64,000 bases of DNA from Mobula hypostoma (lineage: Eukaryota): the NCBI RefSeq assembly GCF_963921235.1, contig NC_086097.1, positions 147,748,001-147,812,000 on the forward strand. The letters run 5' to 3'. Made by a program: the position numbers and the translations under genes. Of this stretch, positions 12,604 through 60,911 are shown piece after piece. The notes under the pieces are model-generated. The model made no database searches. It worked only from the letters and a program-made list of their open reading frames with translations, and was not told the origin of the DNA. Within the stretch, counting starts at the first letter, position 1. Each line of letters opens with the position of its first letter.

Positions 12604-12905
12604 TAAGGGAGGATGGTAGGCTGATAATTTATGAGCGGTGTACTATACAGAGAGAAGGACAGTACGCTAATAACTGGTGAGCGCTCTACTGTATGGAGGG
12701 GAGGACAGTAGGTTAATAACCGGTGAGCGCTCTACTGCATGGAGAGGAGGACAGTAGGTTGGTAACTGGTGAGCACTGCATTACATGGAGTGGAAGGCAG
12801 TAGGGTGATAATTAGTGAGCAGTGTATCGCCTGGAGGGAAGGATGGTAGACTGGTAATTGGTGAGTGCTCTATTCCATGGAGAGAAGAACGACAGGCTGA
12901 TGAGT
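12604..12905. repeat. More diverged 46-bp minisatellite, about 6 copies
   Basis: TGAG(c/t) recurs at 12632, 12678, 12724, 12770, 12816 and 12862, a 46-bp period. Confidence 0.85.
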
Positions 12906-25096: not shown

Positions 25097-25134
25097 CAGT
25101 CGACGTTTCGGGCCGAGACCCTTCGTCGGGACTA
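25097..25134 (-). ncRNA. Hammerhead motif with a U4-to-C change (CCGACGA)
   Basis: Reverse complement of the 26060 motif with one core substitution. Confidence 0.7.
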
Positions 25135-26059: not shown

Positions 26060-26097
26060 TAGTCCTGACGAAGGGTCTCGGCCCGAAACGTCGACTG
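26060..26097 (+). ncRNA. Minimal type-I hammerhead ribozyme motif with an intact core
   Basis: tagtc-CTGACGA-a-gggt(ctcg)gccc-GAAA-cg-TC-gactg. Stem I is tagtc/gactg, stem II gggt/gccc, stem III the palindrome ACGT. Predicted cleavage after GUC at 26092. Confidence 0.85.
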
Positions 26098-27083: not shown

Positions 27084-27242
27084 AAAGCCGGTCTTCGAGA
27101 AGGCGACTACATTGTCTCAGTGAATGAACAGGATTGCAAGTGGTCCAAGCATTCTGAAGTTGTTCAGTTACTGAAAACTACCAGCACAGAGAGTGTCAAG
27201 ATTGGTGTAATAACACTAAATACTTTTGAACACCAGAATAAT
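27084..27242 (+). CDS. RHPN1: Rhophilin-1 exon, second half of the PDZ domain: KAGLREGDYIVSVNEQDCKWSKHSEVVQLLK...EHQNN
   Basis: tttttttcag acceptor, gtaagt donor, phase 0 to 0. Contains the PDZ motifs AGL..GD.I..VN and H.EVV.LLK. Confidence 0.94.
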
Positions 27243-28222
27243 GTAAGTGATAACTATTAGATGTGACTTTTAATGATAAGTGGTGAGTTGATAGTTGTGT
27301 AAGTCAATAGTACAATTAGGATATCACCACATGTAGGCACTTTAGAGTTGGTTACTTTTATGAGAAACTTGGAGCAAGAATCTGAATTTGTTACATGCTA
27401 ATATCTAATCACTGTACCAATTACTTTAATCCAGTGCAGTAGCCCCCCACTTCCCCATACCAAACGGTGATGCAGCCAGTCAGAATGCTGCATTGCCACA
27501 TTCATGAATATCAACATTCATTTGTTGTCATTTCCTGCACAGTTGCAATAGCACAGAATCAGAAGGTCCCACACCAAATGACTGATTTCGACGTCCTTGA
27601 AATATCAGTCGAAGCTGAATTGTGGACAGGTTTTATTTCCTGAACACTAATTCCCATTTTTAATGAATATCTGTTATCCATATAATTTCATAGTTCTAGA
27701 ATGTCCTAACATAGACACTTCTGTTCTCATCTAGAGTTGGTATCTTTCACAATGCTTTAATGGTCTTCCAAAGCAATAATGATGAGATGTGAAAAAACAA
27801 TCAGGATGACTTCCTACTTCTGCTGCTAATTGATCCTTGCTTGGTGTCAGATGTTGATTTTATTTGGTTGAACTCTGATCGTCCCTATTAACAGTAAAGT
27901 TAAATTTAAGTTGAGTGTGCCACCTTCCAACATTTACTACATGTAGAATAAGTAGGTTTGGGAAGAAACGAAAAGAAGACAGACATGCAATAAACTCTAA
28001 AAACATCCTGAACTTGGGAATACCACTAGCCAAACCTTCCCTCAATATGTTAATTCTCCCTGTGGGAATACTATCTGAATTCATTGTGGGATCTCTACCA
28101 AATTGGCATTGCCAAGTTGTCTCGATGGAGAAAAATCACAGATATTATCTAACTGATGAAAGTTTACACACGAATGAAATATAGGAACCTTGGTCTACTT
28201 CTGCAGGAATTGCAAAAAGTTA

Positions 28223-28411
28223 CAAGCAAGAGAAAATCTGCAGATGCTGGAAATCCAAGCAACACACAAAATGCTGGGGGATCTCAGCAGGCCATTCAGC
28301 ATTAATGGAAAAGAGTCCTGCCAAAGGGCCTCGGTCCGAAGCATCGACTGTACTCTTTTCCGTAGATGCTGCCTGGCCTGCTGAGTTTCTCCAGCATTTT
28401 GTGTGTGTTGC
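28223..28411. mobile_element. Short fold-back Penelope-derived element with a decayed hammerhead and a 13-bp TSD
   Basis: Inverted arms of about 55 bp around gagtcCTGCCAA-agggcctcggtcc-GAAGcaTCgactg. TSD TTGCAAAAAGTTA at 28210-28222 and 28412-28424. Confidence 0.85.
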
Positions 28412-28424
28412 TTGCAAAAAGTTA

Positions 28425-40065: not shown

Positions 40066-40890
40066 GGCATCTTTTAATCAATGTTATAAATCTCTTGATT
40101 TCCAAGAACAGCTTAGAGCATTTAGTGGAAAGTTCTTGCCTGTAAATGACGAAGATAGAAATGACTTGATGCTCTTTTTGGTGGAACTGGCTGAGAGGCA
40201 AATGTTTGCTGAAACTACCCTGGGTTTGCTTTGAAAAATGCTTTGGGGTGTATCTTTCAAAGATAGGATCTCAGTCATATTTGGCACCTGAGAAACATCA
40301 TCTTCAACACTTGAATGAAGTGTCAACTTGTATTATCCCTGTAGTATGGCTTAACCTCAATAATGTAGTGATATCTTTGAGTCAAACTACTGAAGGGTTC
40401 TTTGTCCCTTCATACAGCTGTTAGCTAGATTGATAAGAACTCATTTTGTACAGTCGTTTTTGAATGGGGGTACTGAGTCCAAACCTTACTTTAGGACTTG
40501 GACAAAATTCAGGTTCCTGGTGTGTGTGTGGGGGTGTTTGTATGTATATTTATATCTATATCTATCTATCTGGGGTTGGTGGCAGGGAGGAACTTGGCAT
40601 ATTGCATGTATATTTCATTTATCCTGCATATCTCACCATTGGAGTGTAAGATTTATTGTGAAATAGATGCTCTTATCATTCTTGCAATGTTGGGAAAATA
40701 TCCATGTTCTGAAACTCAATTGGTAACCCAATAATGGGAATACAGCGGTGGAACAACTTAGCATATTGTGCAGTAAGCTGAGACAGTTGAAAATGTAATA
40801 ATTTCAATTCTGGCATAGTCCTCTATTACGATACAAGTTCTGGTGCAGTCATTTGAGTTAATTGTTTCTTTTTCTTTTCAACTCCTGCAG

Positions 40891-42532
40891 CTCTTATAAC
40901 GAACCATAAGAATGTTCATGGAGATGTTCCTGCAGTTCCAGCATCTTGTAGTTCACACGGGCAAGGACCATGGGCAAAAAGCAACACTAAATTCACATCT
41001 GTTTGCCCACAAAAAGTGCCAGGACATCATGGGTCAGAATCCAGTAGCTCGTGGCGAACAAAATACTCTCTGGTAAATAAGAAGCCTGTTGATACAAGTG
41101 GTGAGGCACTTAATATCCCTGGAGGCCAGATAATGCCTGCTGGAGTACGTGAGCAGAATACTGTTGGAAAATGCATGGTGAAAACGACTGTGTCTGGAGG
41201 TGGAAACTTGGTTGTCAAGTCAGACAGAGAAGTTCAAGCAAATCCCCGAGCACAGTCTTTGTTGGACCTGAATTCTCAGCTTGCAATGAAGAACGATAAG
41301 CTGTTGGGACTGAAGGCAAAGCTGGATAAGGTGAAAATGAGCAGGAAAATTAATGTAATGGATGGCACAAAGTTAACCTCTTGCAATGGGTCTACTGTGA
41401 AAAGTGCATCAAAGCAAGAAGAGGAAAGGAAGTCCCAGAACATAGACAAGAAAAAGCCACTTGAAGCATCAGGAAATATCAAGGGGAGTGCTTCTTATGA
41501 TTGTTGCAGTATGTTGGCGCATTGTTCTACTAAAACCCCATATATGGAGACAAGTACTGTTAAAACATTTGAGACATCAAAGTATACACTTCAGAAAACC
41601 TATCTGAAGATTGATAAGATTGATCGCATTGCTCGTGAGACTGCTCAGGAAGAGGGTAAATTCCCACAAGTCATGGAGTCAAATAGTGGTGTTTGCACAG
41701 ACCTTGAAGTACCAATAGAAAAGTTGCACAGACCTGCTGTGATGAATAAAATTGCTGAGCACAACAAAAATGACTCTATAAAGTCAGGAAAAGTTCAGAA
41801 TGCTTCAAGTTCTCTAGACCAAGTGCCGTTTAGTACTTCCCCAATTAAAAAATCTAAATATACATGGCAGAAAGGATCAGATCTGAATCTAGATCCTTCA
41901 TCATGTAGGTGCCACAATGAGACTCTGAACAGAGTCATTGAAACAGCCTCTCCCTGTGCTTCTCAGGTTCAAACAATGAATGTGATTGGTAGCTCTTTAA
42001 AATCAAAATCCCCTTTGTCACTTCGAGTACATAAGAAACAAAGGGCCAGTACGCCTCTCTGTAACTGTATGGGTAAGGGTAGGAAAGCGAAGTATGTTTG
42101 GGTTTCTAGCACTGCTCAGTTAAACCAGTCCATGAACTCCACTGAGTTGACACGAAAGTCTGTTTCACCGAGGTTGGTTAAAAGTACTGTAAAATGCATC
42201 GCGGGAAGCAGTAGTACAGCACTCGGTCTAGATGCAGGAGTTAGATCTGTAGGAAAACATAAAAAGGCCGCAAGCTGTCAGAAAATAGGTGGCTTGTCAA
42301 GCAAGTACCGTTGGAAAGCAGTAGAAGCTGTCTCCCCTTCAAGATCACTTTATCAGTGGAAGTCACAGGACTCTTGTAAGACTAGACCTTCAAACCATCA
42401 GACAAGAACTGTATCCCTGAAAAAAGCTGAGCTTGCTATTGATGTCTCAAAAAAGGTGTTGAATGAATCTGCATCTACACATTACAAAATGAAAAGCACA
42501 ACAAAGATTATCAGGAGAAATGGAGGAAAGAG
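40891..42532 (+). CDS. ZC3H3: ZC3H3 large exon 2 (1642 nt; S/K-rich, probably disordered): (A)LITNHKNVHG...WRTKYSLVN...YKMKSTTKIIRRNGGK
   Basis: ctgcag acceptor at 40890, gtaagt donor at 42533, open frame (includes ORF 41016-42536). Contains the ZC3H3 motifs WRxKYSLVN, SKYxWKA and YKxKSxTKIIRR. Confidence 0.92.
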
Positions 42533-43581
42533 GTAAGTTTATTTTAAGGCATAACGCTACTTCACTGCTGAAATATTTGGAGTTGGAGGGGAGCCATAAA
42601 GTGAAATAACTTGAAACATTTTATTGCTTTAGAAGTATGATGTAGTCGCAAGTTATTACAGTTATTCTTTGAAATAGCTGTGTAATTAATTGCAATAGGT
42701 GAGAAAAATGTTTGGTTGGAAATAAGGAAAATGTATTTTGCCAAAAATAATTTTCAAGAACTTTAATTTAGCCAGCAATTATGCCATCTCAACTATTATC
42801 TTCTAGTGTTTCTGCAATTTTTTGTGGTCCAGGGTGTATTTCAGAGGGTGTTCTGCATGTACAGTTTCATTACAATATAATTTTTAACTGAAACAGATTA
42901 GTCTAAACCTCTTGATTTGGAGATGTTTAACTCAAATTAGCTAATATTTATTTTCGAAACACTTAATTTTTACTTTGCATTGTTATTTAAGTAGTTCCTT
43001 TCAAATTGTTTTTACCCCAAAACGATTTATTTTTAAATGAATTTAAATTATCCAATTCTTTGGGAATTTGTAATATTAGCTTAATAGATGAATTGGGAAG
43101 AAAATGGTTTTGTTTTTAATAAATACATTTACTTAGAAAATATATTGTACTTTGTTCATTAACTTGCCTTCTTATGAACCAATTATAATGTCTGAACTGC
43201 TTTTGCATAAGTTAATGTTTACAGAAAGTACTCTTAATGAAGCCAAAATATTTATTAGACCAAAAAACAATGCCATGGTTTTAACTTTCAGTCTGGGTGA
43301 TATGGATGGATTTTTCCTCCCAATATTTGCTTACTGTGAGTTGAACTGTCATTTATTATCCATTGTGGTTGGATGTTGAAAACTGGTATGGGGCTGGTAA
43401 TCAGAGGGTTAAAATACAAATCCAAGATCATTCAAGATATTAGAAATGCCCATGATCATGAGGCCTTAAGGATGTTTTTGACCATCCCTCCAGCAGACAT
43501 GGTGATGATATAATATGAACTTCATTTTGTAAAAATTTAAGTCAGATTTAACCTTCACAAAGTTTCACATAACATGGATAT

Positions 43582-44560
43582 TCCGCCACCTCCAACGGGA
43601 TCCCACCACTAAGCACATCTTTCCCTCCCCCCCCTCTCTGCATTCCGCAGGGATCGCTCCCTACACAACTCCCTTGTCCATTCGTCCCCCCCATCCCTCC
43701 CACTGATCTCCCTCCTGGCACTTATCCGTGTAAGCGGAACAAGTGCTACACGTGCCCTTACACTTCCTCCCTTACCACCATTCAGGGCCCCAAACAGTCC
43801 TTCCAGGTGAGGCATCACTTCACCTGTGAGTCGACTGTGGTGATATACTGCGTCCGGTGCTCCCGATGTGGCCTTTTATATATTGGTGAGACCCGACGCA
43901 GACTGGGAGACCGCTTTGCTGAACATCTACGCTCTGTCCGCCAGAGAAAGCAGGATCTCTCAGTGGCCACACATTTTAATTCCACATCCCATTCCCATTC
44001 TGACATGTCTATCCACGGCCTCCTCTACTGTAAAGATGAAGCCACACTCAGGTTGGAGGAACAACACCTTATATTCCGTCTGGGTAGCCTCCAACCTGAT
44101 GGCATGAACATTGACTTCTCTAACTTCCACTAGGCCCCACCTCCCCCTCGTACCCCATCTGTTACTCATTTTTATGCACACATTCTTTCTCTCACTCTCC
44201 TTTTTCTCCCTCTGTCCCTCTGAATATACCTCTTGCCCATCCTCTGGGTCACCCCCCCCTTGTCTTTCTTCCCAGACCTCCTGTCCCATGATCCTCTCGT
44301 ATCCCCTTTTGCCTATCACCTGTCCAGCTCTTGGCTCTATCCCTCCCCCTCCTGTCTTCTCCTATCATTTTGCATCTCACCCTCCCCCTCCAGCTTTCAA
44401 ATCCCTTACTCACTCTTCCTTCAGTTGGTCCTGACGAAGGGTCTCGGCCTGAAACGTCGACTGCGCCTCTTCCTATAGATGCTGCTTGGCCTGCTGCGTT
44501 CACCAGCAACTTTGATGTGTGTTGCTTGAATTTCCAGCATCTGCAGAATTCCTGTTGTTT
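43582..44560 (+). mobile_element. Penelope-like element, family B: 5'-truncated copy with GIY-YIG and terminal repeat, 8-bp TSD
   Basis: FRHLQRDPTTKHIFP...CKRNKCYTCP...VIYCVRCSRCGLLYIGETRRRLGDRFAEH. TSD ATGGATAT at 43574-43581 and 44561-44568. Confidence 0.92.
44426..44463 (+). ncRNA. Minimal type-I hammerhead ribozyme motif, core intact (G-U at the base of stem II)
   Basis: tggtc-CTGACGA-a-gggtctcggcct-GAAA-cg-TC-gactg. Confidence 0.8.
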
Positions 44561-44834
44561 ATGGATATGTTATTAATGTCTAGCTGATTTTTGGTAGTCT
44601 GTTACATAAAGCTATGCTACTTCTGTGGTGCATGAGGTTCCTCATATTGCACTAAAATTATTTATAATTTCTAATTTTAGAAATAATGCTGTTTTTGGGA
44701 TTTTTATATAACATTTGGAATTACAAAATTTCCAAGGAGCAACACCAAATAAAGTTGGCTCCAAACCACTTGTGTACTGCTTCCATTTATTTAGTACATG
44801 TAAATACATCAAGAAGGCCCCACAGTAACTTCCT

Positions 44835-45290
44835 CTTTTCAGGCTGTCCCTTGGAGCTAAAGATGACTTTCTTTCCAGTCTATTTGTGTGTGATTCTGAG
44901 ATGACCAGTGAGGCCATTTTGGGGCCAGCAGAGGGTGCCACATACAAGGGAGAAGCTGCATGATAGGGCTGATGTTTGGGAAGGGATGCATTGTTCCTGA
45001 AATTGGGTCTTGAAATTCTCAGTACCTTCCCAAATGATTCTTCATTTAAAACCCTCATGGGCTGGAGATCCCCATGATTTTTTGGGAAACAATTTGAGAA
45101 TATCTTAGATTGTTTCCATCATCTACCTAGAAATCTCTTGTTTTAATGGAACTCAAAATAGAATGTCTATTTCAGTATCTGTTGTGAGGCAAGCAGATGA
45201 AATGGGCTGCGGATTGGAACCTATTGTGTATGATTTGTGCTCTCATGCTAAGAACGTCTGTTTGGCAAAGAAGCCTGTTATTGATTTGTT
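44835..45290 (-). mobile_element. Old RTE-like LINE 3' fragment
   Basis: Minus-strand VLRISRPNFRNNASL region and an RTE-like 3' end. Weak similarity. Confidence 0.45.
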
Positions 45291-45909
45291 TATCCCACCA
45301 ATAAATTTGGACTTATAGGGTTTTTCACACATGGCATTTGTGATTTGAGGTCTCTGCTGAGGGAAATGGGTGGTGGGGTGGAGATGCATCCTACCAGAGG
45401 AGGTTTAAAGTCCTCCTTTCCTCCGCTAACCTGCAGGTCACCCTTGACCAAAACTGATATTCTTTGGGTCATGAGTTTTCTTGGCCCTTTGCTATCATGT
45501 TCAGGTTCCTGTGGACTGATTTATTTTTAATTATTTTTTCCTTTGACCTATGATGGAGTTTCCAGTCCAAAAATACCCAGCATTTGCTGGGTTTTTGTGA
45601 TCATTCTTTTAAAATTTGGCCTGGTGTTTTCTTTTGGAGAAGCTAAAGTACTGATTATGTGGACCTCACAGAAGGAGCAGTGTCCAAATGCTGTTGGTTG
45701 GAGATTGTCAGATTACAAGGTTTTTTTTCTGAATGAGCCTTCAGATTTTTGTCATTATTTTGTAGTTAAATTTCCAACTCCATTTTTATTTTGAGGCCAG
45801 GAAATTGAAGATAATGAGATGGATTAGGCAGCAGTTAGTCTAGTAGTCTTCAGTAAATTTATTTGCGATGGTAATGTGGATGCTAGTAGAAAAGTTCATA
45901 AACAACATA

Positions 45910-47620
45910 CAGTTGAAGTCAGCAGTTTACATACACCTTAGCCAAATACATTTAAACTCAGTTTTTCACAATTCCTGACATTTAATCCTAGAAAACATTC
46001 CCTGTCTTAGATCAGTTAGGATCACTACTTTATTTTAAGAATGTGAAATGTCAGAGTAATAGTAGAGAGAATGATTTATTTCAGCTTTTATTTCTTTCAT
46101 CGCTTTCCCAGTGGGTCAGAAGTTTACATACACTTTGTTAGCATTTGGTAGTATTGCCTTTAAATTGTTTAACTTGGATCAAACATTTTTGGGTTGCCTT
46201 CCACAAGCTTCTCACAGTAAGTTGCTGGAATTTTGTTCCATTCCTCCAGACAGAACCGGTGTAACGAGTCAGGTTTGTAGGCCTTTTTGCTTGCACATAT
46301 TTTTTCAGTTCTGCCCACAAATTTTCTATCGGATTGAGGTCAGAAAATGATGTCAAGTATGGTACATCCTTGGGAGCAATTTCCAAACACCTGAAGGTAC
46401 CACGTTCATCTGTACAAACAATAGTACGCAAGTATAAACACCATGGGACCACGCAGCCGTCATACTGCTCAGGAAGGAGAAGCATTCTGTTTCCTAGAGA
46501 TGAACGTACTTTGGTGTGAAAAGTGCAAATCAATCCCAGAACAACAGCAAAGGACCTTGTGAAGATGCTGGAGGAAACAGGTAGACAAGTATCTATATCC
46601 ACAGTAAAACGAGTCCTATATTGACATAACCTAAAAGGCTGCTCAGCAAGGAAGAAGCCACTGCTCCAAAACCGCTATAAAAAAAGCCAGACTACAGTTT
46701 GCAAGTGCACATGGGGACAAAGATCTTACTTTTTGGAGAAATGTCCTCTGGTCTGATGAAACAAAAATTGAACTGTTTGGCCATAATAACCATCGTTATG
46801 TTTGGAGGAAAAAGGGTGAGGCTTGCAAGCCGAAGAACACCATCCCAACCATGAAGCATGGGGGTGGCAGCATCATGTTGTGGGGGTGCTTTGTTGCAGG
46901 AGGGACTGGTGCACTTCACAAAATAGATGGCATCATGAGGAAGGAAAATGATGTGGATATATTGAAGCAACATTTCAAGACATCAGCCAGGAAGGGTCTC
47001 GGCCTGAAACGTCGACTGCACCTCTTCCTACAGATGCTGCCTGGCCTGCTACGTTCACCAGCAACTTTGATGTATGTAGCCAGGAAGTTAAAGCTGGTCG
47101 CGAAAGGGCCTTCCAAATGGACAATGACCCCAAGCATACCTCCAAAGTTGTGGCAAAGTTACTTGAGGACAACAAAGTCAAGGTATTGGATTGGCATCAC
47201 AAAGCCCTGACCTCAATCTGATAGAAAATTTGTGGGCAGAACTGTAAAAGCGTGTGCGAGCAAGGAGGCCTACAAGCCTGACTCCATTACACCAGTTCTG
47301 TCTGGAGGAATGGAACAAAGTTCCAGCAACTTACTGTGAGAAGCTTGTGGAAGACTACCCAAAACGTTTGATGCAATGCTACCAAATGCTAACAAAGTGT
47401 ATGTAAACTTCTGACCCACTGGGAAAATGATGAAAGAAATAAAAGCTGAAATAAATCATTCTCTCTACTACTATTCTGACATTTCACATTCTTAAAATAA
47501 AGTAGTGATCCTAACTGACCTAAGACAGGGAATGTTTTCTAGGATTAAATGTCAGGAATTGTGAAAAACTGAGCTTAAATATATTTGGCTAAGGTGTATG
47601 TAAACTTCTGACTTCAACTG
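45910..47620 (+). mobile_element. Sleeping Beauty/Tss1-family Tc1 transposon, rearranged and inactivated
   Basis: Ends cagttgaagtc...gacttcaactg with a TA TSD. IR/DR cores agtttacatacac. Transposase remnant SLGAISK.LKVPRSSVQTIVRKYKHHGTTQPSY...WSDETKIELFGHN...KHGGGSIMLWGCF...MDNDPKH...DLN.IENLWAEL with stops and frameshifts. Confidence 0.95.
46995..47077 (+). mobile_element. 83-bp Penelope terminal fragment inserted in the Tc1 transposase, 10-bp TSD
   Basis: ggtctcggcctGAAACGTCgactg...caactttgatgt matches the family B end. TSD AGCCAGGAAG at 46985-46994 and 47078-47087. Confidence 0.9.
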
Positions 47621-48919
47621 TATGTCAGTTGTTCAGAAGTGTCCCAACAAAATCTGATTTTTTTTTTTCCCTCTGGCCAAGTAAGATTGTTCCAAACATT
47701 GTGGTACATATAGAATGCTGTTGGCATTGGCTTTCCCTGTTTGCACTTTGTAAATCTTTCTTTTATGATGATCCATCATTTATGATTTGCATTGAGGTCA
47801 TGCAGAAGGGACTTTATCTCCTTGTGGGTGATAAGATTTGGATCTGTTTGCTTTTCTATTTTGAAGATCAGAATAAAAAATCCTCTGCCAAATCTGTATT
47901 TTTCGGGGTTTGTGTGTGCTGTGAGTATTCTGGTTCTGTGTTAGTTAGCTGGGGCAACATAACATTTGTGTTTCTTACCCCATGAAATTTGTGAATCAGT
48001 AGATGAGTTTATTCTCAACAGTAAAACCACTCATAAAGATAATGTTCCTAGTTTTTTTTTAGCCATTATGGAACTCTGGCTATAATTTCCCTACCCCGTT
48101 TCTTCTGTACCTCGAACTGCAGATACCTAATACTTTTTCCAGAAGCTATCCTGGTTCATGTTTGGATGATTGAAGTTCTCCATTATCATTACACTATGGC
48201 TTTTGCACATCTCTGCAGTTTTATGATAAATTTGGTCCTCCATATCTTTTCCAGTAGCTGGAGTTCTTTCCTACAGAGTTATCACAGTAATATAATTGCA
48301 CGTGTACTGTTTCTTAATTCTAAGATGCTGTTTGACAAATGTGAACCAGGATGGCAATAACTTAAAAGGCAAGGACATAGGAGTCACTATACATGATAAC
48401 TTTCTTGATTAGTAAGTTCCTGGCCCAACAAGGCAGCTGGCTTTACTGGAAGTCAGCTACAGAAGCTGAACCAAGCCAAGTACTATAGCTCATTTGCAGT
48501 GGAGGATATCTAGGAAACTTTGATTATAATATGATAACTTTTAGAATAGCTTCTGTAAAAAGTATTAGGTACTCCAAGTTATAAGCGGTCTATTAAAGGG
48601 CAAATTTCAATAACTGGGCAATAATTAGGCTTTAAAGTGGAGATATTTAATCTGCAGTTTGGGATGAATAGCTTTCTTTTGATCTCATAAGTTTCCGGAA
48701 CTTTTCACCTTTGGTCATTACAGGTTAATTGATTATAGCTTTATTGGTGTTGGTTTATTATTATCACATGTGCCTAGATACAGTGAAAAGCTTGACTTGC
48801 TGTTCATACAGATCAAATCATTACACAGTACAATGAGCTTGACTAAAGTAAAATAAAGTGTAAAAGCTACTGGAAAAAAATGCAGTGCAGGTAAATGATG
48901 AGGTGCAAGATCACAATAA

Positions 48920-49550
48920 GACCATAAGACAGGAACAGAATTGGGCTATTTGACCCATTGAGTCTGCTTTGCCATTCCATTCCAACAAGCCTGATTTATT
49001 ATCCCCTCAACCACAATCTCCCTCCTGCACTAATCAAAAATCTATCAACTTGCACTTTAAATATACCCAATGGCTTGGCCTTCACAGCCATCTGTTGCAG
49101 TGAATTGCTGTGATTCACTGGCTTCTGCTTAAAGAGATTCCTCCTCATCCCTGTTGTAAAGGGACACCCTTCAATTTTGAGGCTGTAGTCTCTGGTCCTA
49201 GACTCACCCACAATAGGAAACATCCTCTTCACATTCACTTTATTTAGGCCGTACTGCATTTGATAGGTTTCATTCTTCTAAGCTCCATTGTGTACAGGCC
49301 CAGAGCCATCAAATGCTCTTCATATGTTAACCCTTTCATTCCGAGGATTATTCTCATGAACCTTTTCTGGACCCCCTCCAATGCCAGTACATCCTTTCTC
49401 TGATAAGAGGTCCAAAACTGCTCACAGTATTCTGTGCAGTCCAACCAATGCCTTTTAAAACCTCAGCATTACATCCTTTTATATACTAATCCTCTCGAGG
49501 TGAATGCTAACATTGCAATTGCCTTCTTTACCACTGACTCAACTTCAAGT
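48920..49550 (-). mobile_element. CR1 3' fragment, antisense
   Basis: EYCEQFW..Y.RKDVLALEGVQ.RF and MFPIVGESRTR, plus a CR1 3' UTR. Confidence 0.85.
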
Positions 49551-50029
49551 CAAATGCACATCTGGCCAGGAAATGTATCATTGCAGCTTCAAAATAACTC
49601 AGCTTAAACTTGGCTTGCAATGTGGTGATGTCTTCCACATAAATATTGCGGGAATTTAAAATGGGGCTTTACCTCAATCTTATTAAAAACAAATAATGAA
49701 TGCCTGTTTAATGCTGGCCTTGCCAGTGATGCCACATGTAAACTATAAAAAAAGTTTACAATGGTAGTTGCCTTTAGATAGAAATGCAGGTTATTACCAT
49801 TAGAGGATAGTAATGAATTATTGAAACACTAGACATTCTGCTGCTACAGAATTTTCTATTAAGAGAAGTTTCTACAGGAGTAGTACATAACTTTCTAACG
49901 TGACAAAGGTACCTTGACAGTCTGGCACTCACCCATGAGAATTTTCAGGTCTTAAGCTTCAGGAAAGATCCAAGGTCCTATCATTTCTAACTATGTGCTG
50001 ATGGAAAAACTCCTTTCAGCATTTGCTTA

Positions 50030-50445
50030 GCTTCCTAAAACTGCCCCACCTCCCCTTCGTACCACTTCCGTTATTTATTTATTAATATTATTATTAGTTT
50101 TTTTTCTTTCTCTCTCTCCTTTTTCTCCCTCTGTCCCTCTCACTATACTCCTTGCCCATCCTCTGGGCTTCCCCCCTCCCTCTTTCTTTCTCCCTAGGCC
50201 TCCTGTCCCATGATCCTCTCATATCCCTTTTGCCTATCAACTTTCCAGCTCTTAGCTCCATCCCTCCCCCTCCTGTCTTCTCCCATCATTTCGGATCTCC
50301 CCCTCCCCCTCCCACTTTCAAATCTCTTACTAGCTCTTCTTTCAGTTAGTCCTGACGAAGGGTCTCGGCCCAAAACGTGGACTGTACCTCTTCCCATAGA
50401 TGCTGCCTGGCCTGCTGCGTTCACCGGCATTTTTTATGTGTGGTT
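50030..50445 (+). mobile_element. Solo Penelope family B terminal repeat; hammerhead at 50347-50384 with G12A and C17G changes
   Basis: Near-identical to 25750-26155. The core reads CTGACGA...cAAAAcgTGgactg. Confidence 0.88.
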
Positions 50446-51059
50446 CATGTTTCACAAACTCACCCATTTTGAAACAGATGGGAATGTTTCAGGCAATTTA
50501 AGTTTTTGAAACAAATGATTAGATATATTTAAATTAATATAATTTTCAAAGCTTCAGAAAATTTTCCAATGCTTCTGAATGCCGAAGTGACTCACAGATA
50601 CTCAAAGTCTTACAGCAGTTTTGACAAGTGGTAAGGCTGAAGTAAATGTCGACCAATTCTGGAGGTAGGCTTGCCATTTTCAGTGCAAAAGCTGGTACTG
50701 CTCCAGAAGTTGTAGTCTGGCTGTCACAAGTACAGATGATTAGCTGCACAGAAACATCTGCAGTTTGGACGTAGGCCTTCGATTGATGATATTTGTATTT
50801 TATTTCTCAAAAATTGCCAGTGAATTAGGCCAGTCAGTTGAACTTGACGCCTTATGGAATGGCGATCTCAAGCAGCAGAGCTCAGATATGATTAAATATT
50901 CTCGTTTTAGCCTGATACACCTGAGAATCACAACTGCTTCCAAGATCTGTACAGATAATAAAGATGTCTTAATGCAGTTGAATAAACTGTCACTGCTTAA
51001 AACCGATGAAAACAATGCCAACTGTGGCTGTACTTCCCACATTCAATGTAGGAAATATG

Positions 51060-53620
51060 GCTGTAGGTCAGGGATACAAGTCTGTTTAAGGAAATGGGAT
51101 TTTAGACTCCCAAGACCAACTTACCTTGCTGGAATTGAAGATCTCTGAACTAGAGTGCTGTATCAGAGGGACATTAAGACCGCCTGCATCCTTTGTTTCA
51201 TGGAATCCTGGTTAACTCCTCCTGTACCGGACACAACGATTCAGACTGACAGGTTCACTGTACAGTACACCATCAGGATAGGACTGTCAAGTCTCTGAAA
51301 AGCAGAGGTGGAGGTGTATGCCTCATGGTCAGCTCCCCTTGGTGCACAAATATAATTCTGATTACCAGACCTGGAATATCTCTAAATAAATGTCATTCAT
51401 TTGACCTGCCGTAGGAGATTTCTGTGATCATGTTGGTAACAGTGTACGTTCCACCTCAGGTCAATGTCAAACAGGCTTTAGATGATGTGAGCAATGGGAT
51501 CAACATGCATGAAACAGCATACTCTGACATCTTCATCATTTTTGGGGATTTTTAACTAGGCCAGCCTGAAAAAAATGACTAAATAATTATCATCAACAAA
51601 TCACTTGTAGTACTGGAAGAAACAGCACACTGGACCACTGTTATACCACCACTAAGAATGTTTACTGTGCTATTCTACACCCTCACTTTGGGAAGTCTAA
51701 TTACCTGGCTGTACTTCTACTCCCTAAGTAGAGGCAGAGATTGAAGACTGTAGCGCCAGAAGTGAGGACCAAGAAGGTATGGCCAAGGGAAGCACAGGAA
51801 TGCTTACAGGACTGCTTTCAATCAGTGGACTGGCCTGTATTCAGGGATTCATCTTTGAATCTGGATGAGTATGCCACAGTTGTTATTGATACCATTAAAG
51901 CCTGTGTAGATGAGTGTGTGCCTACGAAAACTTGCTATACGTGCCCAAACCAAAAGCTGTGGATGTACCAGGAGGTACATCACCTGCCGAGATTTGTGGC
52001 ATTTAAGTCTGGTGATCCAGGTCTGTACCAGTTATGACTTGCAGAGGGCTATTTCAAGGGCGAAGAGACAATTCTGAGCAAGGTTGGAGGTGACATTGGA
52101 TGCATGATAACTCTGACAGGTTTGCAAGACATTACTTCCTACAAAGCAAAACCCAATAGAATGAATGGCAGCGATGCTTCACTATCAGGTGGGCTCAATG
52201 CCTTCTATGCCCGCTTTGAAAGGGAGAATATAATTGCAGCTGTGAAGATCCCGGCTGCACCTGCTGATCCAGTGATTGTCTCAGAGGCCGATGTTAGGCT
52301 GTCTTCAAGGAGGGTCAATCCTCGCAAGGCAGCAGGCCCCGATGGAGTACCTGGTAAGGCTCTGAAAAAGTACCAACCAACTGGTGGGAGAATTCAAGGA
52401 TACTTTTCAACCTCTTACTGCTACAGTCGGAAGTGAGAACTACTTCACCTATTTCGAAAAGGCAACAATTATACCAGTGCCTAAGAAGAATAGTGTCAGC
52501 TGCTGTCCTCAGCAAGGACCTGGACCTACTGCAATTTGCCTATTGCTACAATAGGTCTGTGTTAGATGCAGTCTCAGTGGCTCTTCACATGGCATTACAT
52601 TCATCTGGATAATACAAACATTTACGTCACAATGCTGTTCGTTGACTATAGCTCAGCATTTAGCACCATCATTCCTATCACCCTGATTGATAAGTTACAG
52701 AATCTGGTCCTCTGGGCCTCCCCCTGCATTGGATCCTCGACTTCCAAACCGGAAGATCACAATTTGTGCGGAGTGGTGATAATACTTCCTCCTCGTTGAC
52801 GCTCAACACTGGTGCACCTTAGGGGTGTGTGTGCTTAGCCCACTGTTCTACTTTCTATTTACACATGACTGTGTGGCTAGGCATAGCTCAAATACCATCT
52901 ATGAATTTGCTGATGATGCAATCATTGTTGGTAGAATTTCAGATGGAAATGAGAGGGCGTACAGGAGCAAGATATATCAGCTAGTTGAGTGGTGTCGCAG
53001 CAACAACCTTGCACTCAATGTAAGAGGAAAGAGCTGATTGTGGACTTCACGAAGGGTAAAATGCAGAAACGCGAACCAGTTCTCATAGAAGGATCGGAAG
53101 TGAACAGAATGAGCAATTTCAGATTCCTGGGTGTCAATATCTCTGAGGATCTAACCTGGTCCCAACATATCGATGCAGCTATAAAGAAGGCAAGTCAGTG
53201 GCTATATTTCATTACGAGTTTGAAGAGATACGGTTTGTCAACTAAAACACTCAGGCTTCTATAGATGTACCGTGGAGAGCATTCTGACGCTGCATCACTG
53301 TTTGTTACGGGGGTGGCGGGGTGGGGGGGGGGGTCGGGGATGCTACTACACAGGACCGAAAGAAGCTACAAAGGACAAAATTAGTCATTTCTATCTTGGG
53401 TACTAGCCTCCGCAGTACCCATGACATCTTCAAGGTGCAGTGCTTCAGAAAGGCAACGTCCATTATCAAGGTCCTTCATCATCCAGGGAATGCCCTCTTG
53501 TCATTGTTACCTTCAGGAAGGAGATTCAGAAGCCTGAAGGCACACAGTCAGTGATTCAGGAACAGCTTCTTCCCCTTTGCCATACAATTCCTAAATGGAC
53601 ATTGAACCCATGAACACTAC
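51060..53620 (+). mobile_element. Degenerate near-full-length Rex1/Babar LINE (APE endonuclease and RT)
   Basis: Remnants [55 protein letters not shown] and LLPSGRRFRSL. Many frameshifts. Confidence 0.88.
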
Positions 53621-54090
53621 TTCACTTATTTTAAAAAGACATTATTTCTGTTTTTTGCACTATTATTAATTTATTCAATATACATATATACTTTAATTGA
53701 TCTATTTATTTGAATGAAGCAAGCTTCAAAATTTTATGAGGCACAGTTTTTTTGGGTATATTATGGTAAATGAAACCACATGAAAAGATGTGACAGTGGA
53801 CTATTAGTTAATTTAAAGTATTAATCCAAGTTTTACACATTGATATCCCTTAAAGGAGAGAAAAGAAAAACAGCAGGAAACATGCTGATCAAGAGCAATT
53901 GAAATGTTATTAGATTCAAAGAAAAACCTTGCTAAGAATACCAGTATATTGGTATTTTAGTGTCACATATCCCAGGGTTCAGTGAAAACTTTTGTTTTGC
54001 ATGCCATCCATACAGGTAATTTCATCCCATCAGTACGTCGAGGTAGTACAAGGGAAGAGTAAGTAAACCTAAGGATTTAGGTTTACTTAC

Positions 54091-54437
54091 CTCTGAATAT
54101 ACCCCTTGCCCATCCTCTGCGTTCCCCCCCCCCCCCGGTCTTTCTTCCCAGACCTCCTGTCCCATGATCCTCTTGTATCTCTTTTGCCAATCACCTGTCC
54201 AGCTCTTGGCTCCATCCCTCCCTCTCCTGTCTTCTCCTATCATTTTGGATCTCCCTCTCCCCCTCCCCCTCCAACTTTCAAATCTCTTACTAACTCTTCC
54301 TTCAGTTAGTCCTGACAAAGGGTCTCGGCCTGAAACGTCGACTCTACCTCTTCCTAGAGATGCTGCCTGGCCTGCTGCGTTCACCAGCAACTTTGATGTG
54401 TGTTGCTTGAATTTCCAGCATCTGCAGAATTCCTGTT
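54091..54437 (+). mobile_element. Penelope family B terminal fragment with a 16-bp TSD; hammerhead at 54307-54344 with a G8A change
   Basis: Near-identical to 44217-44557. TSD GTAAACCTAAGGATTT at 54063-54078 and 54438-54453. Confidence 0.88.
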
Positions 54438-54448
54438 GTAAACCTAAG

Positions 54449-54610
54449 GATTTGCAAGTTTTCAGTTCAGTAAATGCAGGGGGAGGGTGTGTGGCTAAGA
54501 TATTGATAAGGAAAGAAGTAGATCTGAAGATTTGAAGTTTTCACAGTTCAGTAAATGTGGGTGGAGTTGGGGGTGTGTAGCTAAGACATTGATAGGGAAA
54601 GAAGAAGACG
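54449..54610. repeat. Diverged tandem duplication of about 80 bp
   Basis: aagtttt(ca)cagttcagtaaatg...gggtgtgt.gctaaga.attgata.ggaaagaag occurs twice in succession. Confidence 0.75.
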
Positions 54611-55274
54611 AGTAGAGTTGTGACACATAAGAAATATTTAACAATTTCTGTAGAAGGAAAAGTAACTCTTGTATCTTTTCCCCCTCTTAAATCTATGCCC
54701 AATAGTTTAAAACTGATCATTCAGTTTATCTATGTCCCTCATGATTTATTTACCTTTACAAGTCAGCCCTCAGCTTCTAATATTTCAGGGAAAGCAGCAC
54801 CAGCCTATCGATTCTGTCCTTTATAACTCAAGCCCTCTAGTCTGAGGAAAATCTTTATGAATTTTTTCTGTGTCCCTTCATGCTTAGCCACACCTGCCCT
54901 AAATTACACTGAATATAACTGCACACGAGGCTCCTAATGTGGTGTCACCACCTCTTAAACAGCTGTAATGTGACAATGCAACTCTTGTACTCGGTGCCCT
55001 AACCAATGAAACCAGGTGTGCCTCTTAAGTTTCTCTGTTCTATAGCATTCTTCAGGGCCCTGCCATTTACTGTGCAAGGCCTGGCCCATTTTAACTTCCC
55101 AAAATAATAAGATATACAAACCGCGTTAGGCCATTTGGCCTGCCATTCAGTCATGGCTGATTTTTTTTCTCAAACCCATTCACGTGCTTGTTTCCTGTAA
55201 TCCTTAACCCTCTATACTTTAATCAAGAACCTATCACTCTCTGCTTTAAATACACATGACTTGGTTTCTGTTTT

Positions 55275-55580
55275 GGGCACGTGGCCAAGTGGTTAAGGCA
55301 TTGGGCTAGCTACCTGAAGGTTGTGAGTTTGAGCCCCAGCCGAGGGAACGTGTTATGTCCTTGAGCAAGGCATTTAATCACACATTGCCCTGCAACGACA
55401 CTGGTGCCAAGCTGTATGGGTCCTAATGCCCTTCCCTTGGACAACATTGGTGTCGTGGAGGGGGGAGACTTGCAGCATGGGCAACTGCTGGTCTTCCATA
55501 CAACCTTGCCGAGGCCTGTGCCCTGGAGAGTGAAGGTTTTCCAGGCGCAGATCCATGGTCTCGCAAGACTAACAGATGCT
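55275..55580 (+). mobile_element. tRNA-derived SINE
   Basis: A box TGGCCAAGTGG and B-box-like gAGTTTGAGCCC with tRNA spacing. Flanked by an approximate duplication of TGGTTTCT. Confidence 0.75.
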
Positions 55581-55738
55581 TTAAATGGTTTCTTTTGCAA
55601 CAAATTCTACAGGTTTAGCACCCTTTGGCTAGAGAAATTCCTCCTCATCTAACTTCTAAATTTCTAAGTGCAATATTTTCACATCTCAACTAAATTCCAT
55701 CTTTCATTCCTTGACCCACTTTTTCAGTTGACCTAGAT

Positions 55739-55821
55739 CAGGGGTTCCCAACTTTTTTTTAAACAACATGGACCAATACTATTAAATAAGGGGACTGTAG
55801 GTTCCAGGTTGGAAATCCCTG
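55739..55821. mobile_element. 83-bp hAT-Charlie-type MITE
   Basis: TIRs caggggttcccaac / gttggaaatccctg. 8-bp TSD acctagat / atctagat, close to the NTCTAGAN target consensus. Confidence 0.8.
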
Positions 55822-58074
55822 ATCTAGATCCTTTTGAAATCAGAAATATTCTTTTCTGTCCACTGGTGTCATCTGCAAAGTTATTAAACATAGTCTGCAT
55901 TCTCATCCAAAAACCAGCATGGATCTCAGTGGCACACCAGTATTCACATCTTAAACACAAGCCTCTACTACCAACCTCTTATTCCGGCCACCAGCAACAT
56001 TTGTTCATTTGGCTAGCTCACACTTGATGTCATATGATCTAACCTTTCAATCAGTCTACCATTCGTAATCTTGTAAAAGATCTTACCGAAGTCCGTATGG
56101 GTAATGTCTACTGCTTTGCCTCGTCAGTCATCTTGGTCAGTTCTTCAAAAACCTCAATCAAATTTGTGAGGCACAATTTCCACACACACAAGCCATACTG
56201 ACTTTCCTTAATCAATTCTTGATAAGAGAGATATAGTCCTGTAACATACCTATCCGCATGCAAGTAGAGCTTTTAACTCAGAATCACCTTTAGTAACTTT
56301 TCCACCACTCATATTAGGCTCACCAGTCTTTTGTTCCTTAGGTTTTCCTTGCAACCCTTCTTAAATAAAGACCCCCCAGCTTATACATCACCTGTAGCTA
56401 ACAATAGTACAAGTATTTTTGCTAAAACCCCTCCAGTTTTATCCATGGCTTCCTGCAATGTCATGGGATACACTTGGTCAGGCTCTAAGGATTTATCCGC
56501 CTTTATGCACTTTAACATTGCTAGTGCTCCTATTTTGTAATGTACATATTTATTTCTTTTATTATTTGTGTTTTTATTATTTTACTTTTCAAGACAGCAC
56601 TGTTCTCTTCCCTGACTTTCTCCACAGTAAATACAGATGAGAAGTATTTATTTTAATTCTCAGATTTCTCTTCACTTCACTCATAGACAATCACACTGAC
56701 CTTAAAGAAGACCACCTCTCTCCCTACATGCCCTCTTGTTCTTGCCCTCGTATCTCGTTAGATTCTCTTTTCTCTTGTTTGCAAAGCTGTCTCATCTTCT
56801 TTTTGTCCTCCTGATTTCCGTCTTAACTTTACTCCACTCAAGGGATTTGCTTGATCCCAGCTCCTTATACCTGACATATGCATCCTTTTCCCTGACCAGA
56901 CCCTCAGGATCCTTTGTTATTAACACAGTTCCCTAATCTTGTTAGCCCTGCCCTTCACTGTAACAGGGACACCCTGATGTTTTACTGGCTGGGTTGTTTA
57001 GAACCAGGGTTATATTCTCAAAAGTATGGAGTCAGCTATTCAAGATGGAAGTGAGAAGAAGTTGCTTTGCCTGTAGGATGGTGAAGTTTTTGAAATCAGA
57101 GTTCATTGAATTAAGCTATAAAATGATAATTTTTAAATTAAATATTATGGAGTTAATGCCGGGAAATGGCCATGAGGTGAAAGATCACCCATAACCCTAT
57201 AGAATAATGGAGTAAGTGCAAAGAGCCCAATGACCAACTCTTGTTTCTGTATCTTGCGTTGTTCTGGAGATTTTATTCTGGTTATATGTCCACTCCTGAC
57301 CTAGGACCTGGTTTTTGTGTGTTATAGCTTGTGTGCTTAGGTGCTTTAATGGCAGTTTAAATGGAGGATTGGTCAATGCATAGAAAAAAGAGTGGAAATT
57401 GACAGATCAACAAGTCACTGTTGGAATGCATAGTGTTGAATATCATGCATCTGCTAGCTCTTAGAAATCTGAGTGATGATTGGCTCTGCAGACTTCTGTC
57501 CATAATACACCTAATACATCAACAGTAAAAGAAATGCTTTGCATGTTCCGCACCTCTGATTATCTGTCAAATTCCCTTTCTAAAATATTTATGAAGTTGG
57601 ATTCTAGCATCTTTTATAGGCAGTGGATTCTTGAGGATGCCAAATGCAATTTTCCTCATTGCTTCTCTTAATTTTCTGTTCATAATTTTAAATCTATTGC
57701 CTCTAGTTATTGATCCATATGCTGTAGGCAATGCTATTTTCTACCAACACTTAAAACCTCTCTGCGCATTGTTCTTTTCTGCAGATTATAGTAATTAATC
57801 TTGTAGTTCTACCATTGAGTTTGGAATGTTTTCCTCAAGTTTTAGTGATAGAACTCACCAGAATATGTAGCTACACCAAAACATTTGTGTTTTGGTATGA
57901 ATTTCTTTGACTTCTAATTGAGCTATATATTTTTCAAAAAAATGTATGCGTGGAGCATCTTCCACATTCTCTACAGCCAATAACAATGACTCACTGCAGT
58001 ATGTTAATATTTTAAATGGGAAAACTGAAAATGGGGAGAGATGGCAATGAATTTCATAGTTGGCACTTCCTACT

Positions 58075-58928
58075 TGAAGATCACGTGAGCACAGTCAGCA
58101 TCGGAGGGAGGAACATCACAAACCTAAGATTTGCTGATGACATTGATGGACTTGCAGGAAAAGAGGACGAACTGGCCAATCTGGTCAGCCATCTTGACAG
58201 AGCCTCCACAAAGTTTGGAATGGAAATAAGTGCTGAGAAAACCAAGCTGATAGCAAATGCCAACGGTGCCATCACAACAGACATTTCAGTCCATGGTCAG
58301 AAACTTGAGAGTGCAACAGTTCAAATACCTGAGGGCATGAAGGATCAAGACCAGAAGTCCTGGCAAGAACCGCGCAGACAATGACTACCCTATCCAAACT
58401 CAAGACAATATGCAGTGACAACAGCATCACCTTGAAGTACAAGATCAGACTTCTGCATGCATTGGTATTCTCCATCTTCCTGTACGCATGTGAGACATGG
58501 ACCCTCACAGCAGAGCTACAGAGGAAGATACAGGCATTGGAAATGAGGTGCTATCGCAACATCTCGGGCATCTCATACTTGGACCACATCACAAACGAGC
58601 AGGTCCGCAAGACCATACAGCACCACATTGGCCCCCGTGAAGACCTTCTCACAACAGTGAAGAAACAAGCTGAGATGCTATGGCCACGTAACAAGATCCA
58701 GTGGCCTTGCAAAGACCATTCTACAAGGAACTGTGGAGGGGAAAAGAAGGAGAGGTAGACAGAGGAAAAGATGGATGGACAACATTAAAGAATGGACAGG
58801 GAAAACACTTGCGGTGACCTAGGCTCTGGTACACAACCGCGACAGATGGAACAGATTGGTGCAAAGTTTGTCATGACGGCGCCCCGATGACTCCACCGGG
58901 AGTTAAGGGTGCAAGGAAGGAAGGAAGG
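58075..58928 (+). mobile_element. RTE-clade LINE 3' fragment with a (GGAA)n tail
   Basis: ITNLRFADDIDGLA, GMEISAEKTK, YACETWTL and ALEMRCYR, followed by a short tandem-repeat tail. Confidence 0.85.
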
Positions 58929-59339
58929 ACTTCCTACAAAAAGAAGTCAGTATGGTCTCACTATAAAGCAGATATTCCATAGGGGTCGACAATGGATTTT
59001 GTGTCCCAGCTTGATACACAAGCCAGGGCAGTACAATATGCAGAGCAAGCTGTTGCTCGTGTAGCAGGCACCCACCTCTACACGTAGCTGATGAATCCAA
59101 AGGAGTGGCAGAGACCATTACAGTTTGGCATCAGCATAGGACTGCCTTAGGGACTTCAGCTCTGGAGTTTTCCTTGCGGTTTACTCCTGAAGCAACCTTC
59201 CCTCTAACTTTTTTTTACAACTGCGCGGACCAACCATTGTTCTGAGCAGGAAATTTTTACACAGCCTAAAAACTGCAAGGCACTTCGAATTTTTTTTTTG
59301 TAATATGCACACCAACATATGCACATTTGTTTGCACGTG

Positions 59340-60570
59340 ATCTGGAGGGGGACTAATATCCTAGTGGGAAGGTTTGCTAATACTGCATGGGCGGGGGTTT
59401 AAACTAGAGTTGCAGAGGGAGGGAATGAGAGTGCCAGCACCATTAATAGTGTGATTGTGGGGACAGATGTTAAACCTCAGACAATGTCAGGAAGCAAAAG
59501 CTTGAGCATGGTGAGTCTAATGTTCTGAGTTGCGTATATTTTAATGCAAGTTGTAGGAAAGGTAGATGAGTTTAAGGCTTGGATCAATACATGGAATTAT
59601 GATATTGTATCCGTTGGTGAGACTTGGTTGCAGGAGGGGCAGGACTGGCAGTTCAATATTCTGGGGTTCTGTTGTTTTAGACTTGATGGAGCTGGAGAGA
59701 TTAAAGGGGGAGGAGTGTTATTACTAGTCAGGGAAAAGGTCTCAGTACATAGAAGTCCCAATGAGTGAGTGTGCAATACTTGATCTCCTACTAGGGATGA
59801 GACACAGCAGATGACAGAAGTTTAAGAAGCAGGACACTACATTGAGCAATCATAATGCCATTAGTTTCTAGGTAATTATGGAAAAGGATAGGTCTGGTCC
59901 TTGGGTTGAGATTCTGAATTGGAGAAAGGCTAATTTTGAAGGTATCTGAAATAATCTGGCAAATATGGATTGAGACAGGAAAGTGTGTTGGTAAGTGGGA
60001 GGCATTCAAAAATGAAATTTTGAGAATACAATGCTTGAATGTGCCTTTCAGGATAAAACCAAGCATAAAAGGTTTAGGGTTTTGAGAGGTATTCAGGCTT
60101 TGGTTTTTTTTAAAAAAAAAAAGGAGATGCATAGCAGGTATAGGCAGGTAGGAACAAGTGAGGTACTTGAGTAAAAGAAGTGCAAGAGAATACTTAAGAA
60201 AAAAGTCAGAAGGGCTAAAAGAAGGCATATGTTTGCTCTAGCAGACAAGATGGAGCAGAACTCTAATGGCTCCTACAGGTATGTTGAGAACAAAAGGATT
60301 GCGACGAACAGAATTGGTCCTCTGAAAGATCAGAATGGTAATCTTTGCATGGAGCCAAAAGATATGGATGAGATCTTAATTGTTTTTTTTTGCATCTGTA
60401 TTAAGCCAGGAGACGGACACAGAGTCTATAGAAGTGAGGCAAAGCAGCAGTGAGGTCATGGACCCTACACATTACAGAGGAGGAAGTGTTTGCTGTCTTG
60501 GGGCAAATTTGGGTGAACAAATCCCCAGGGCCTGACAAGGTGTTCCCTCATCCTGGGAGAGGCAAGCGCA
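59340..60570 (+). mobile_element. Degenerate CR1 fragment (endonuclease N-terminus to RT start)
   Basis: YDIV.V.ETWL and KGGGV.LLVRE (APE domain), IGPLKDQNG and KSPGPD. Confidence 0.8.
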
Positions 60571-60714
60571 GAAATATCTTGCATTGGGATTGGGAGTATA
60601 TCTAGTTTAGCTTGACTTTATTCTTGCATCCAAAGAAGTGATGATGTTTAGTAGTTACACTGCATGATTTCACTTAAGAGTGTTTATATTTATATTAATG
60701 TTATTTCTTGCTAG

Positions 60715-60911
60715 CTCACCGACTGAGAAGAAGATTAACGTTGGTGGCTTCCCGGTTATGAAAAGTCGTTACTTACTCGTAAAGAAAAGCCCAGTACATG
60801 GGAAATCAACCCCTGTTCTAAAAAGGACACCTGGCAAAGGGCTTGTGCAAATCAGCAAACATAGGTTGCAGAGGCTACCAGCATCAGCACTGCATGTCAG
60901 TGCAAAACAAG
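60715..60911 (+). CDS. ZC3H3: ZC3H3 exon 3: SPTEKKINVGGFPVMKSRYLLVKKSPVHGKSTPVLKRTPGKGLVQISKHRLQRLPASALHVSAKQ
   Basis: ctag acceptor, gtaggg donor. Phase 2 matches the end of exon 2. GKS.PVLK.TP.KGLVQ..HRL.RLP is the recalled ZC3H3 motif. The CCCH zinc-finger exons lie beyond the window. Confidence 0.9.

Follow-up and report, generated by a model that had tools for sequence, protein, structure and literature searches.

The ZC3H3 gene of a devil ray carries, inside one of its introns, a dead copy of the Sleeping Beauty (SB) transposon in which both ends are of the right type. It is very likely that the SB family reached the ray lineage by horizontal transfer, since synonymous and non-coding distances to the salmonid-type element are about 5%, as against a synonymous divergence (dS) of roughly 1-3 expected after 473 Myr. 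The copy belongs to the SB clade of Tc1 elements and spans 1,711 nt (45910..47620, + strand) of the window, the 64,000-nt stretch of DNA that was analysed. An SB-family transposon had been called at this place in an earlier note on the same DNA, and the call is confirmed, both of the peptides and the DNA motif quoted there being present in the window.

The host was identified through ZC3H3. A 559-codon open frame (40857-42533) corresponds to a ZC3H3 coding exon (40891..42532, +), which is identical to the Mobula hypostoma protein XP_062913760.1 at 547 of 548 residues (99.8%), and the next exon (60715..60911, +) is identical to the same protein at 67 of 67 (100%). With splice sites read from the sequence, the two exons flank an 18-kb intron (42533-60714) that holds the SB element in sense orientation. 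A probable cartilaginous fish had been proposed as host, with the ZC3H3 exons as the means of checking the species. That comparison returned M. hypostoma and the proposal is borne out; judging from these exons the host is a devil ray, almost surely M. hypostoma, and a teleost host is ruled out. When 7,997 candidate proteins of 960-2,740 aa were scored against ZC3H3, 13 were returned, 12 of them with cartilaginous-fish labels. Over the long exon, amino-acid identity to the window is 96% in M. birostris, 86-87% in Hypanus and Hemitrygon, 71% in Pristis, 59% in Narcine and 46-55% in three sharks. Further upstream, an exon encoding a PDZ domain (27027-27257, +) is consistent with the RHPN1 call made for this region.

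The element opens with CAG at 45910, closes with CTG at 47620 and is bordered on both sides by TA, the target-site duplication (45908..45909 and 47621..47622, +). Each end holds an outer and an inner direct repeat (DR), and all four are intact: the left outer DR, a transposase site (45910..45941, +), has one difference from the right outer DR (47589-47620), and the left inner DR (46106..46137, +) has the same sequence as the right inner DR (47393-47424), these right-hand repeats forming part of the native right inverted repeat (IR/DR; 47393..47620, +). A TA duplication, long terminal inverted repeats and two DRs per end are the traits of the IR/DR group of DD34E/Tc1 elements. The empty target site can be reconstructed, as had been claimed, as the palindrome ACA-TA-TGT, and a palindromic consensus has been described for SB target sites in the available parts of PMC5801840. 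The claimed fit to the SB preference stands as suggestive only, since 100 of the 4,178 TA sites of the window are also perfect 8-nt palindromes. The insertion site further fits the motif AYATATRT, which is taken here to be the SB target motif, as do 12 of those 4,178 sites; a literature search for this motif gave no match.

Between the ends lies the remnant of a transposase gene (46354..47392, +) covering codons 20-340. The intact 340-aa frame of an autonomous SB was not found: the start codon is gone, in-frame stops occur at 46517, 46622 and 47245 (codons 74, 109 and 286), three single-base frameshifts lie near 46680, 47095 and 47195, and 20 nt have been deleted at 47371. When aligned with the reference, the DD34E triad (D153, D244, E279) is kept, with a 1-nt deletion now lying between the second D and the E. 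Matches among solved structures (PDB) were to SB chains only, namely 5CR4, the catalytic domain of SB100X (E 1e-61), and two entries for the SB PAI subdomain, 2M8E (E 1e-14) and 6URS (E 6e-14). Because the first 19 codons are missing, the window copy would be unable to supply a whole transposase. An active or domesticated gene was considered and rejected; engineered SB vector DNA was likewise rejected, and the element has no evident function.

Two complete canonical SB copies from metagenome contigs (L001 and L002) have served as reference DNA. L001 is treated as salmonid-type because, by eye, its first 400 coding nt equal the row SB-Huchuc in the supplement of a dedicated survey of these transposons (Jia et al., 2022, PMC9777934). 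The window copy is 94.3% identical to L001 over 1,173 nt, which upholds the earlier claim that both the transposase remnant and the right IR/DR stand close to SB. The differences amount to 26 of 640 nt in the 5' part of the coding sequence (CDS), 29 of 305 in the 3' part and 12 of 228 in the non-coding right IR/DR. Across the CDS there are 55 in 945 nt, within the more than 80% CDS identity that delimits the SB clade, and over 300 aa its dead transposase agrees with salmonid-type SB at 87% of residues. The 3' CDS (47088-47392) is further from L001 than the 5' CDS (9.5% against 4.1%, Fisher p 0.0015); changes specific to salmonids, or recombination between lineages, may lie behind this pattern.

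With each difference counted singly on the L001 codon, 10 synonymous differences in 212 sites give a dS of 0.049 (95% range of the raw proportion 0.023-0.087), a value that stands for ten changes in one copy, and 45 non-synonymous differences in 724 sites give a dN of 0.065. Since dN is not different from dS (Fisher p 0.51), the codons give no sign of purifying selection, and constraint does not account for the resemblance. According to the supplementary time tree of PMC7070016, the chondrichthyan split lies at 473 Myr, and a vertebrate synonymous rate of about 3.1e-9 per site per year is stated in the same paper. Vertical descent would then be expected to yield a dS of 2.9, or 0.95 at an assumed rate of 1e-9, and the observed value would need a rate of 5e-11. 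In the available parts of their study, Zhang et al. (2020, PMC7070016) ask of a transfer that Ks be below 0.5 on at least 100 codons, that the hosts have split more than 120 Myr ago and that Ks lie under the 0.5% quantile of host core-gene Ks; for the first two, the figures here are 0.049, about 310 codons and 473 Myr. The host gene offers a contrast, in that the ZC3H3 exon shares 86-87% of its residues with stingrays and 46-55% with sharks, whereas the dead transposase shares 87% with salmonid-type SB. The low dS, the few differences in the right IR/DR and the lack of purifying selection together support the horizontal transfer that the earlier note had thought likely.

The left end has lost the canonical organisation, in which a distinct left IR/DR with a half-DR enhancer is followed by a 5' untranslated region (UTR). 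The left arm (45910..46343, - strand, 434 nt) is instead an inverted copy of the right IR/DR together with the last ~68 transposase codons, and it replaces the native left IR/DR; its template is the right arm (47207..47620, +, 414 nt). The two are 89.5% identical over 440 columns, with a bit score of 582 against a maximum of 32.8 in 50 shuffles, and the left terminus has 12 differences in 228 positions from the fish right IR against 72 in 222 from the fish left IR. A 15-nt relic of the native 5' UTR (46341..46355, +; element positions 261-275 of L001) follows the arm; the same 15 nt occur, unchanged and a single time, in the 5' UTR of all three fish-type loci. This relic overlaps the left arm by CAG and the CDS by CA, and a 171-nt deletion after it has removed the ATG and 19 codons, reading being resumed at codon 20. 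As the native SB left IR carries a half-DR enhancer (available passages of PMC5224488 and PMC5801840) and has been replaced here, the window copy lacks that enhancer. In a four-way alignment of the arms with the two fish-type loci (412 gap-free columns), 20 differences from both loci are common to both arms, 13 are private to the left arm, 10 are private to the right arm and 3 are of other kinds; the divergence between the arms is K = 0.06. Because those 20 differences are common to both arms, the ray master element differed from salmonid-type SB before the arm was duplicated. For a 13-mer of L001 that is presumed here to be the left-IR enhancer, even the best match in the left arm of the window copy has at least 3 mismatches.

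The transposase remnant is also interrupted by an 83-nt insertion of a local Penelope-like repeat (46995..47077, +), which is 80-94% identical to six other places in the window and is flanked by a 10-nt duplication of transposase sequence (46985..46994 and 47078..47087, +). This nested repeat is absent from all three fish-type loci (L001-L003). A longer copy of the family, at 43573-44130, encodes a GIY-YIG domain with a marginal match (E 1e-4; 23.1 bits against the Pfam cut-off of 22.6), and the family would be consistent with a Penelope-like element. Since the nested repeat has its own 10-nt duplication and kin elsewhere in the window, the SB copy was in a ray genome while the repeat family was active. 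Penelope-like copies have been observed at 24988-26183, 28223-28414, 43573-44572, 50042-50447 and 54090-54439, some of them head to head or hairpin-like, and the ends of the window copies hold a CUGACGA...GAAAC motif, which we take to recall the minimal hammerhead ribozymes of Penelope elements. Rfam gave nothing at the gathering score in window positions 43500-55000, and the folding of three Penelope ends was unremarkable (z-scores of 0.5, -1.4 and -0.75). Other repeats in the window comprise a fairly intact LINE with a 725-aa open frame and a reverse transcriptase domain (20372-22546, +), its diverged relatives (8618-9648 and 23839-24862), frames resembling by eye a decayed hAT/Charlie-type transposase (14560-15068, +; the one frame scanned had no Pfam match) and a tandem array with a period of ~53 nt (12168-12882).

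A second trace of SB in this species is found in the annotated M. hypostoma protein XP_062921089.1 (P0067, 'endoribonuclease LACTB2 isoform X2'), most of which is SB transposase (about 203 residues and a short tail); the model is either an exonised SB copy or an annotation artefact. Compared with two salmonid-type references, this protein and the window copy share nine residues, with 11 private to the window copy and 18 to XP_062921089.1; three or four of the nine are CpG-type changes, which could be the product of two independent events. A tree was built from 20 rows that the author picked among the fetched proteins; in it, an SB clade of 14 rows that includes SB100X and the window copy stands apart from the SB-like rows (100/100). 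Within it the two ray copies pair (84/81), and this pair, a salmonid-type group (84/96) and a third teleost group (100/100) form a polytomy at the base. The ray copies are not nested among salmonid copies in this tree, the salmonid-type group leaving out the ray pair with moderate support. Thus the ray copy is SB proper, of a sub-lineage distinct from salmonid SB, salmonids being at most a possible donor. Codons 96-97 have changed from TK to RQ by two transversions, neither CpG-type, in the window copy and P0067 and in no other stored protein searched. Within the first 400 characters of the rows of the PMC9777934 supplement (Erpcal, Lamexu and Angmeg being left out), the corresponding DNA motif occurs at 3 places, once in SB-Hetnil and twice in SB-Panhyp, against 37 with the salmonid form. 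Ray residues Q133, L143, A230, F303, P312, A313 and E317 match a more distant teleost SB group and look ancestral, and several residues in the 3' third of the transposase (47088-47392) were likewise seen to match that group. The labels SB-Hetnil and SB-Panhyp are presumed here to denote Heterotis niloticus and Pangasianodon hypophthalmus.

Several accounts of how such an element came to lie in ray DNA have been weighed. Vertical inheritance from the jawed-vertebrate ancestor, where either constraint or a slow pace of evolution in rays would have preserved the similarity, would draw on the low substitution rates reported for chondrichthyans (PMC10587355, in part). Yet the gene is broken and dN is not below dS, the non-coding ends are as close as the coding DNA, and a rate ~60 times below the vertebrate mean would be needed on both branches, so that descent from the shark/bony-fish ancestor is not tenable at ~5% synonymous and non-coding divergence and its probability is close to nil. 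Low chondrichthyan rates widen the date but cannot do away with the 470 Myr of the teleost branch. Almost as improbable is that teleost DNA was brought into the ray sequence by contamination or by a chimeric assembly. SB does turn up in metagenomes, and it is very abundant in some sequencing runs (65,768-195,397 contigs per run in four runs). Against this account stand the TA duplication inside a ray intron and the ray-type repeat nested in the copy with its own 10-nt duplication; the earlier note had already named a local Penelope fragment as making contamination unlikely, and the fragment, 83 nt long with six related places in the window, proves real and supports that view. A second M. hypostoma fragment, though perhaps from the same assembly, has the diagnostic residues too. 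A search for sequencing runs listed 24, none with half of the query words, and four of them were compared over window positions 46345-49900. All four give the same 55-56 majority differences, lack the junction, show loose ends running on into canonical CDS ahead of 46354, and lack cover on the flank, except for two depth-4 bins in one of the runs. These four runs are high-copy carriers of canonical SB and do not come from the window's organism, and the window copy is not the common canonical form. Scans for related loci gave 3 from 130 metagenome candidates and none from 62 candidates in prokaryote genomes or 9 in viral contigs, leaving no vector lead; in the flank of one of the three (L001:1-1110), the sequence resembles by eye a minus-strand Tc1-type element with SB inserted into its end. 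As for the route, sister lineages on balance probably entered rays, salmonids and other teleosts in separate invasions, for which a parasite or prey in common may have been the vehicle, with the ray lineage nearest to African bonytongue and Asian catfish copies and not derived from salmonids. This route is favoured by the 20 of 412 columns at which both arms differ alike from both fish-type loci, by the change at codons 96-97 and the presence of its DNA motif in SB-Hetnil and SB-Panhyp, and by the seven residues common to the more distant teleost group. On the other side, the link to these two fishes depends on one motif within the first 400 characters of the supplement rows and on a reading of species abbreviations, and in overall identity salmonid-type sequences still come out closest among those compared.

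The history of the left arm likewise admits two readings. The preferred one, held with modest confidence, is that an element already provided with two right ends moved to this place with transposase supplied in trans. SB terminal repeats of 44-415 bp, with 3' repeats overlapping the open reading frame, have been described in the available parts of PMC9777934, and long-repeat SB forms may already be known from fishes. A possible though less probable reading is that an ordinary left/right element was inserted and its left end later overwritten in place from the right end, by intramolecular gene conversion or template switching, so that the two-right-end form never transposed. The near-identity of the native left and right outer DRs, which would offer a priming point, the microhomology at the junction and the want of a good match to the left-IR enhancer (PMC5224488 and PMC5801840, in part) in the window's left arm are in keeping with such an overwriting. 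It is opposed by the completeness of the two ends with their four DRs, which resembles that of a mobile substrate, and by the arm-private changes (13 and 10 of 412), which are comparable in magnitude to the private decay of the copy, so that any conversion would have occurred near the time of insertion. Repeats of up to 415 bp with 3' repeats overlapping the reading frame (PMC9777934, in part) also suggest that such forms recur. No passage on the performance of SB with two right ends was found in the literature searched; SB also prefers one end, according to the available text of PMC4505599.

With a two-right-end element moved in trans as the preferred reading, a history of the copy can be proposed. 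An active SB of a non-salmonid sub-lineage would have entered the ray germ line and amplified. In one copy lineage, the left 260 nt would then have given way to an inverted copy of the right 434 nt, with 3 nt of microhomology at the joint, and a deletion of 171 nt, at a joint with 2 nt of microhomology, would have taken out the start codon. Transposase acting in trans would bind the four direct repeats, excise the element and paste it at the TA in the window, after which the copy would have decayed neutrally and received the Penelope-like insertion. The host, the boundaries, the TA duplication, the IR/DR ends, the ~5% distance, the breaks, the swapped end and the nested insertion were observed directly, and the order of the steps is inferred. 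At the two rates given above (3.1e-9 and 1e-9 per site per year), and uncalibrated, the divergence of the arms dates to 10-31 Myr and the split from salmonid-type SB to 8-25 Myr; given the slower rates reported for chondrichthyans in PMC10587355 (in part), both would be older. The transfer probably took place within the last tens of millions of years. Two Mobula species, said to have split ~20 Mya in the available part of a preprint (bioRxiv 10.64898/2026.10.27.761883), differ at 4% of ZC3H3 residues. The donor was probably among ray-finned fishes, direction, vector and date being matters of inference; the fish-to-ray direction is favoured because the SB clade of DD34E/Tc1 is recorded from 107 ray-finned fishes and one mollusc and from no chondrichthyan in the available parts of the survey by Jia et al. 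(2022, PMC9777934), where ZB-like elements are recorded from one chondrichthyan.

Transfer of Tc1 elements among aquatic vertebrates is common and well documented, and rays are probably a new host group for a phenomenon already known. In the available parts of PMC7070016, 975 transfers have been inferred, 93.7% of them involving ray-finned fishes and with Tc1/mariner the commonest; its genome list contains Callorhinchus and Rhincodon, and Mobula and Leucoraja were not among the names when searched. Tc1 transfer between teleosts and lampreys has been reported (PMC3516227, in part). Skates and rays are richer in Tc1/mariner than sharks according to the passages of PMC12361510 at hand, which name SB as a sub-category only and make no mention of transfer, and in the accessible part of a mobulid genome preprint DNA transposons make up 2.9% of the M. 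hypostoma genome, Tc1 being unmentioned. The available parts of PMC13320814 and PMC12400950 hold nothing on an SB element. No report of SB in a ray was found in the literature searched, a scope outside which most subscription papers and repeat databases lie. In protein searches, one chondrichthyan-labelled entry stood among the best 120 of 1,940, and only the query itself among the best 120 of 888, dead copies being rarely annotated. The finding adds to the range of SB, the transposon tool most used in vertebrates, a class for which the available parts of the dedicated survey (PMC9777934) do not record it, and offers a clear example of transfer between lineages that parted 470 Myr ago. The ray copies have states of their own at defined residues and IR positions and are hence a source of natural variation for both transposase and ends. 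What deserves to be followed further is the exchange of the left end and the affinity to non-salmonid SB. A bolder proposal, regarded here as rather unlikely, is that devil rays hold an amplified natural SB sub-lineage, which is sister to that of salmonids and also present in tropical freshwater fishes, and which moves mainly as a form with two right ends and without the enhancer. If the proposal is true, copies of this sub-lineage would furnish natural variants of the SB transposase and of its ends that arose in a cartilaginous-fish host; a two-right-end form, if amplified, would be a natural test of the importance of the left-end enhancer.

Among known systems, the copy is closest to Sleeping Beauty (SB10/SB100X) and salmonid-type Tc1, with which it shares the CAGTTGAA ends, the TA duplication, the IR/DR with two DRs, and the PAI and DDE domains, at 87% amino-acid and 94% DNA identity. 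It differs from them in its cartilaginous host, in the nine residues common to the two ray copies, in having lost the start codon, its native left IR/DR and the greater part of the 5' UTR, and in having two right-type ends and a broken gene. SB-Hetnil and SB-Panhyp (PMC9777934 supplement) share the codon 96-97 motif and, by eye, the states of codons 63, 115 and 133, and differ from the ray copy by many private changes over the first 400 nt compared. The Tc1 elements previously found to have been transferred among aquatic vertebrates (Zhang et al., 2020, PMC7070016; Kuraku et al., 2012, PMC3516227; the ZB-like elements of PMC9777934) belong to the same superfamily and, in the available parts of these papers, show the same low synonymous distance across vertebrate classes, but involve other Tc1 families or hosts. 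The SB-like elements of Astyanax (P0080) and Nothobranchius (P0082), a clade label assigned here, form a sister clade of the same architecture, with only 61-62% identity and a position outside the 100/100 clade that contains the window copy.
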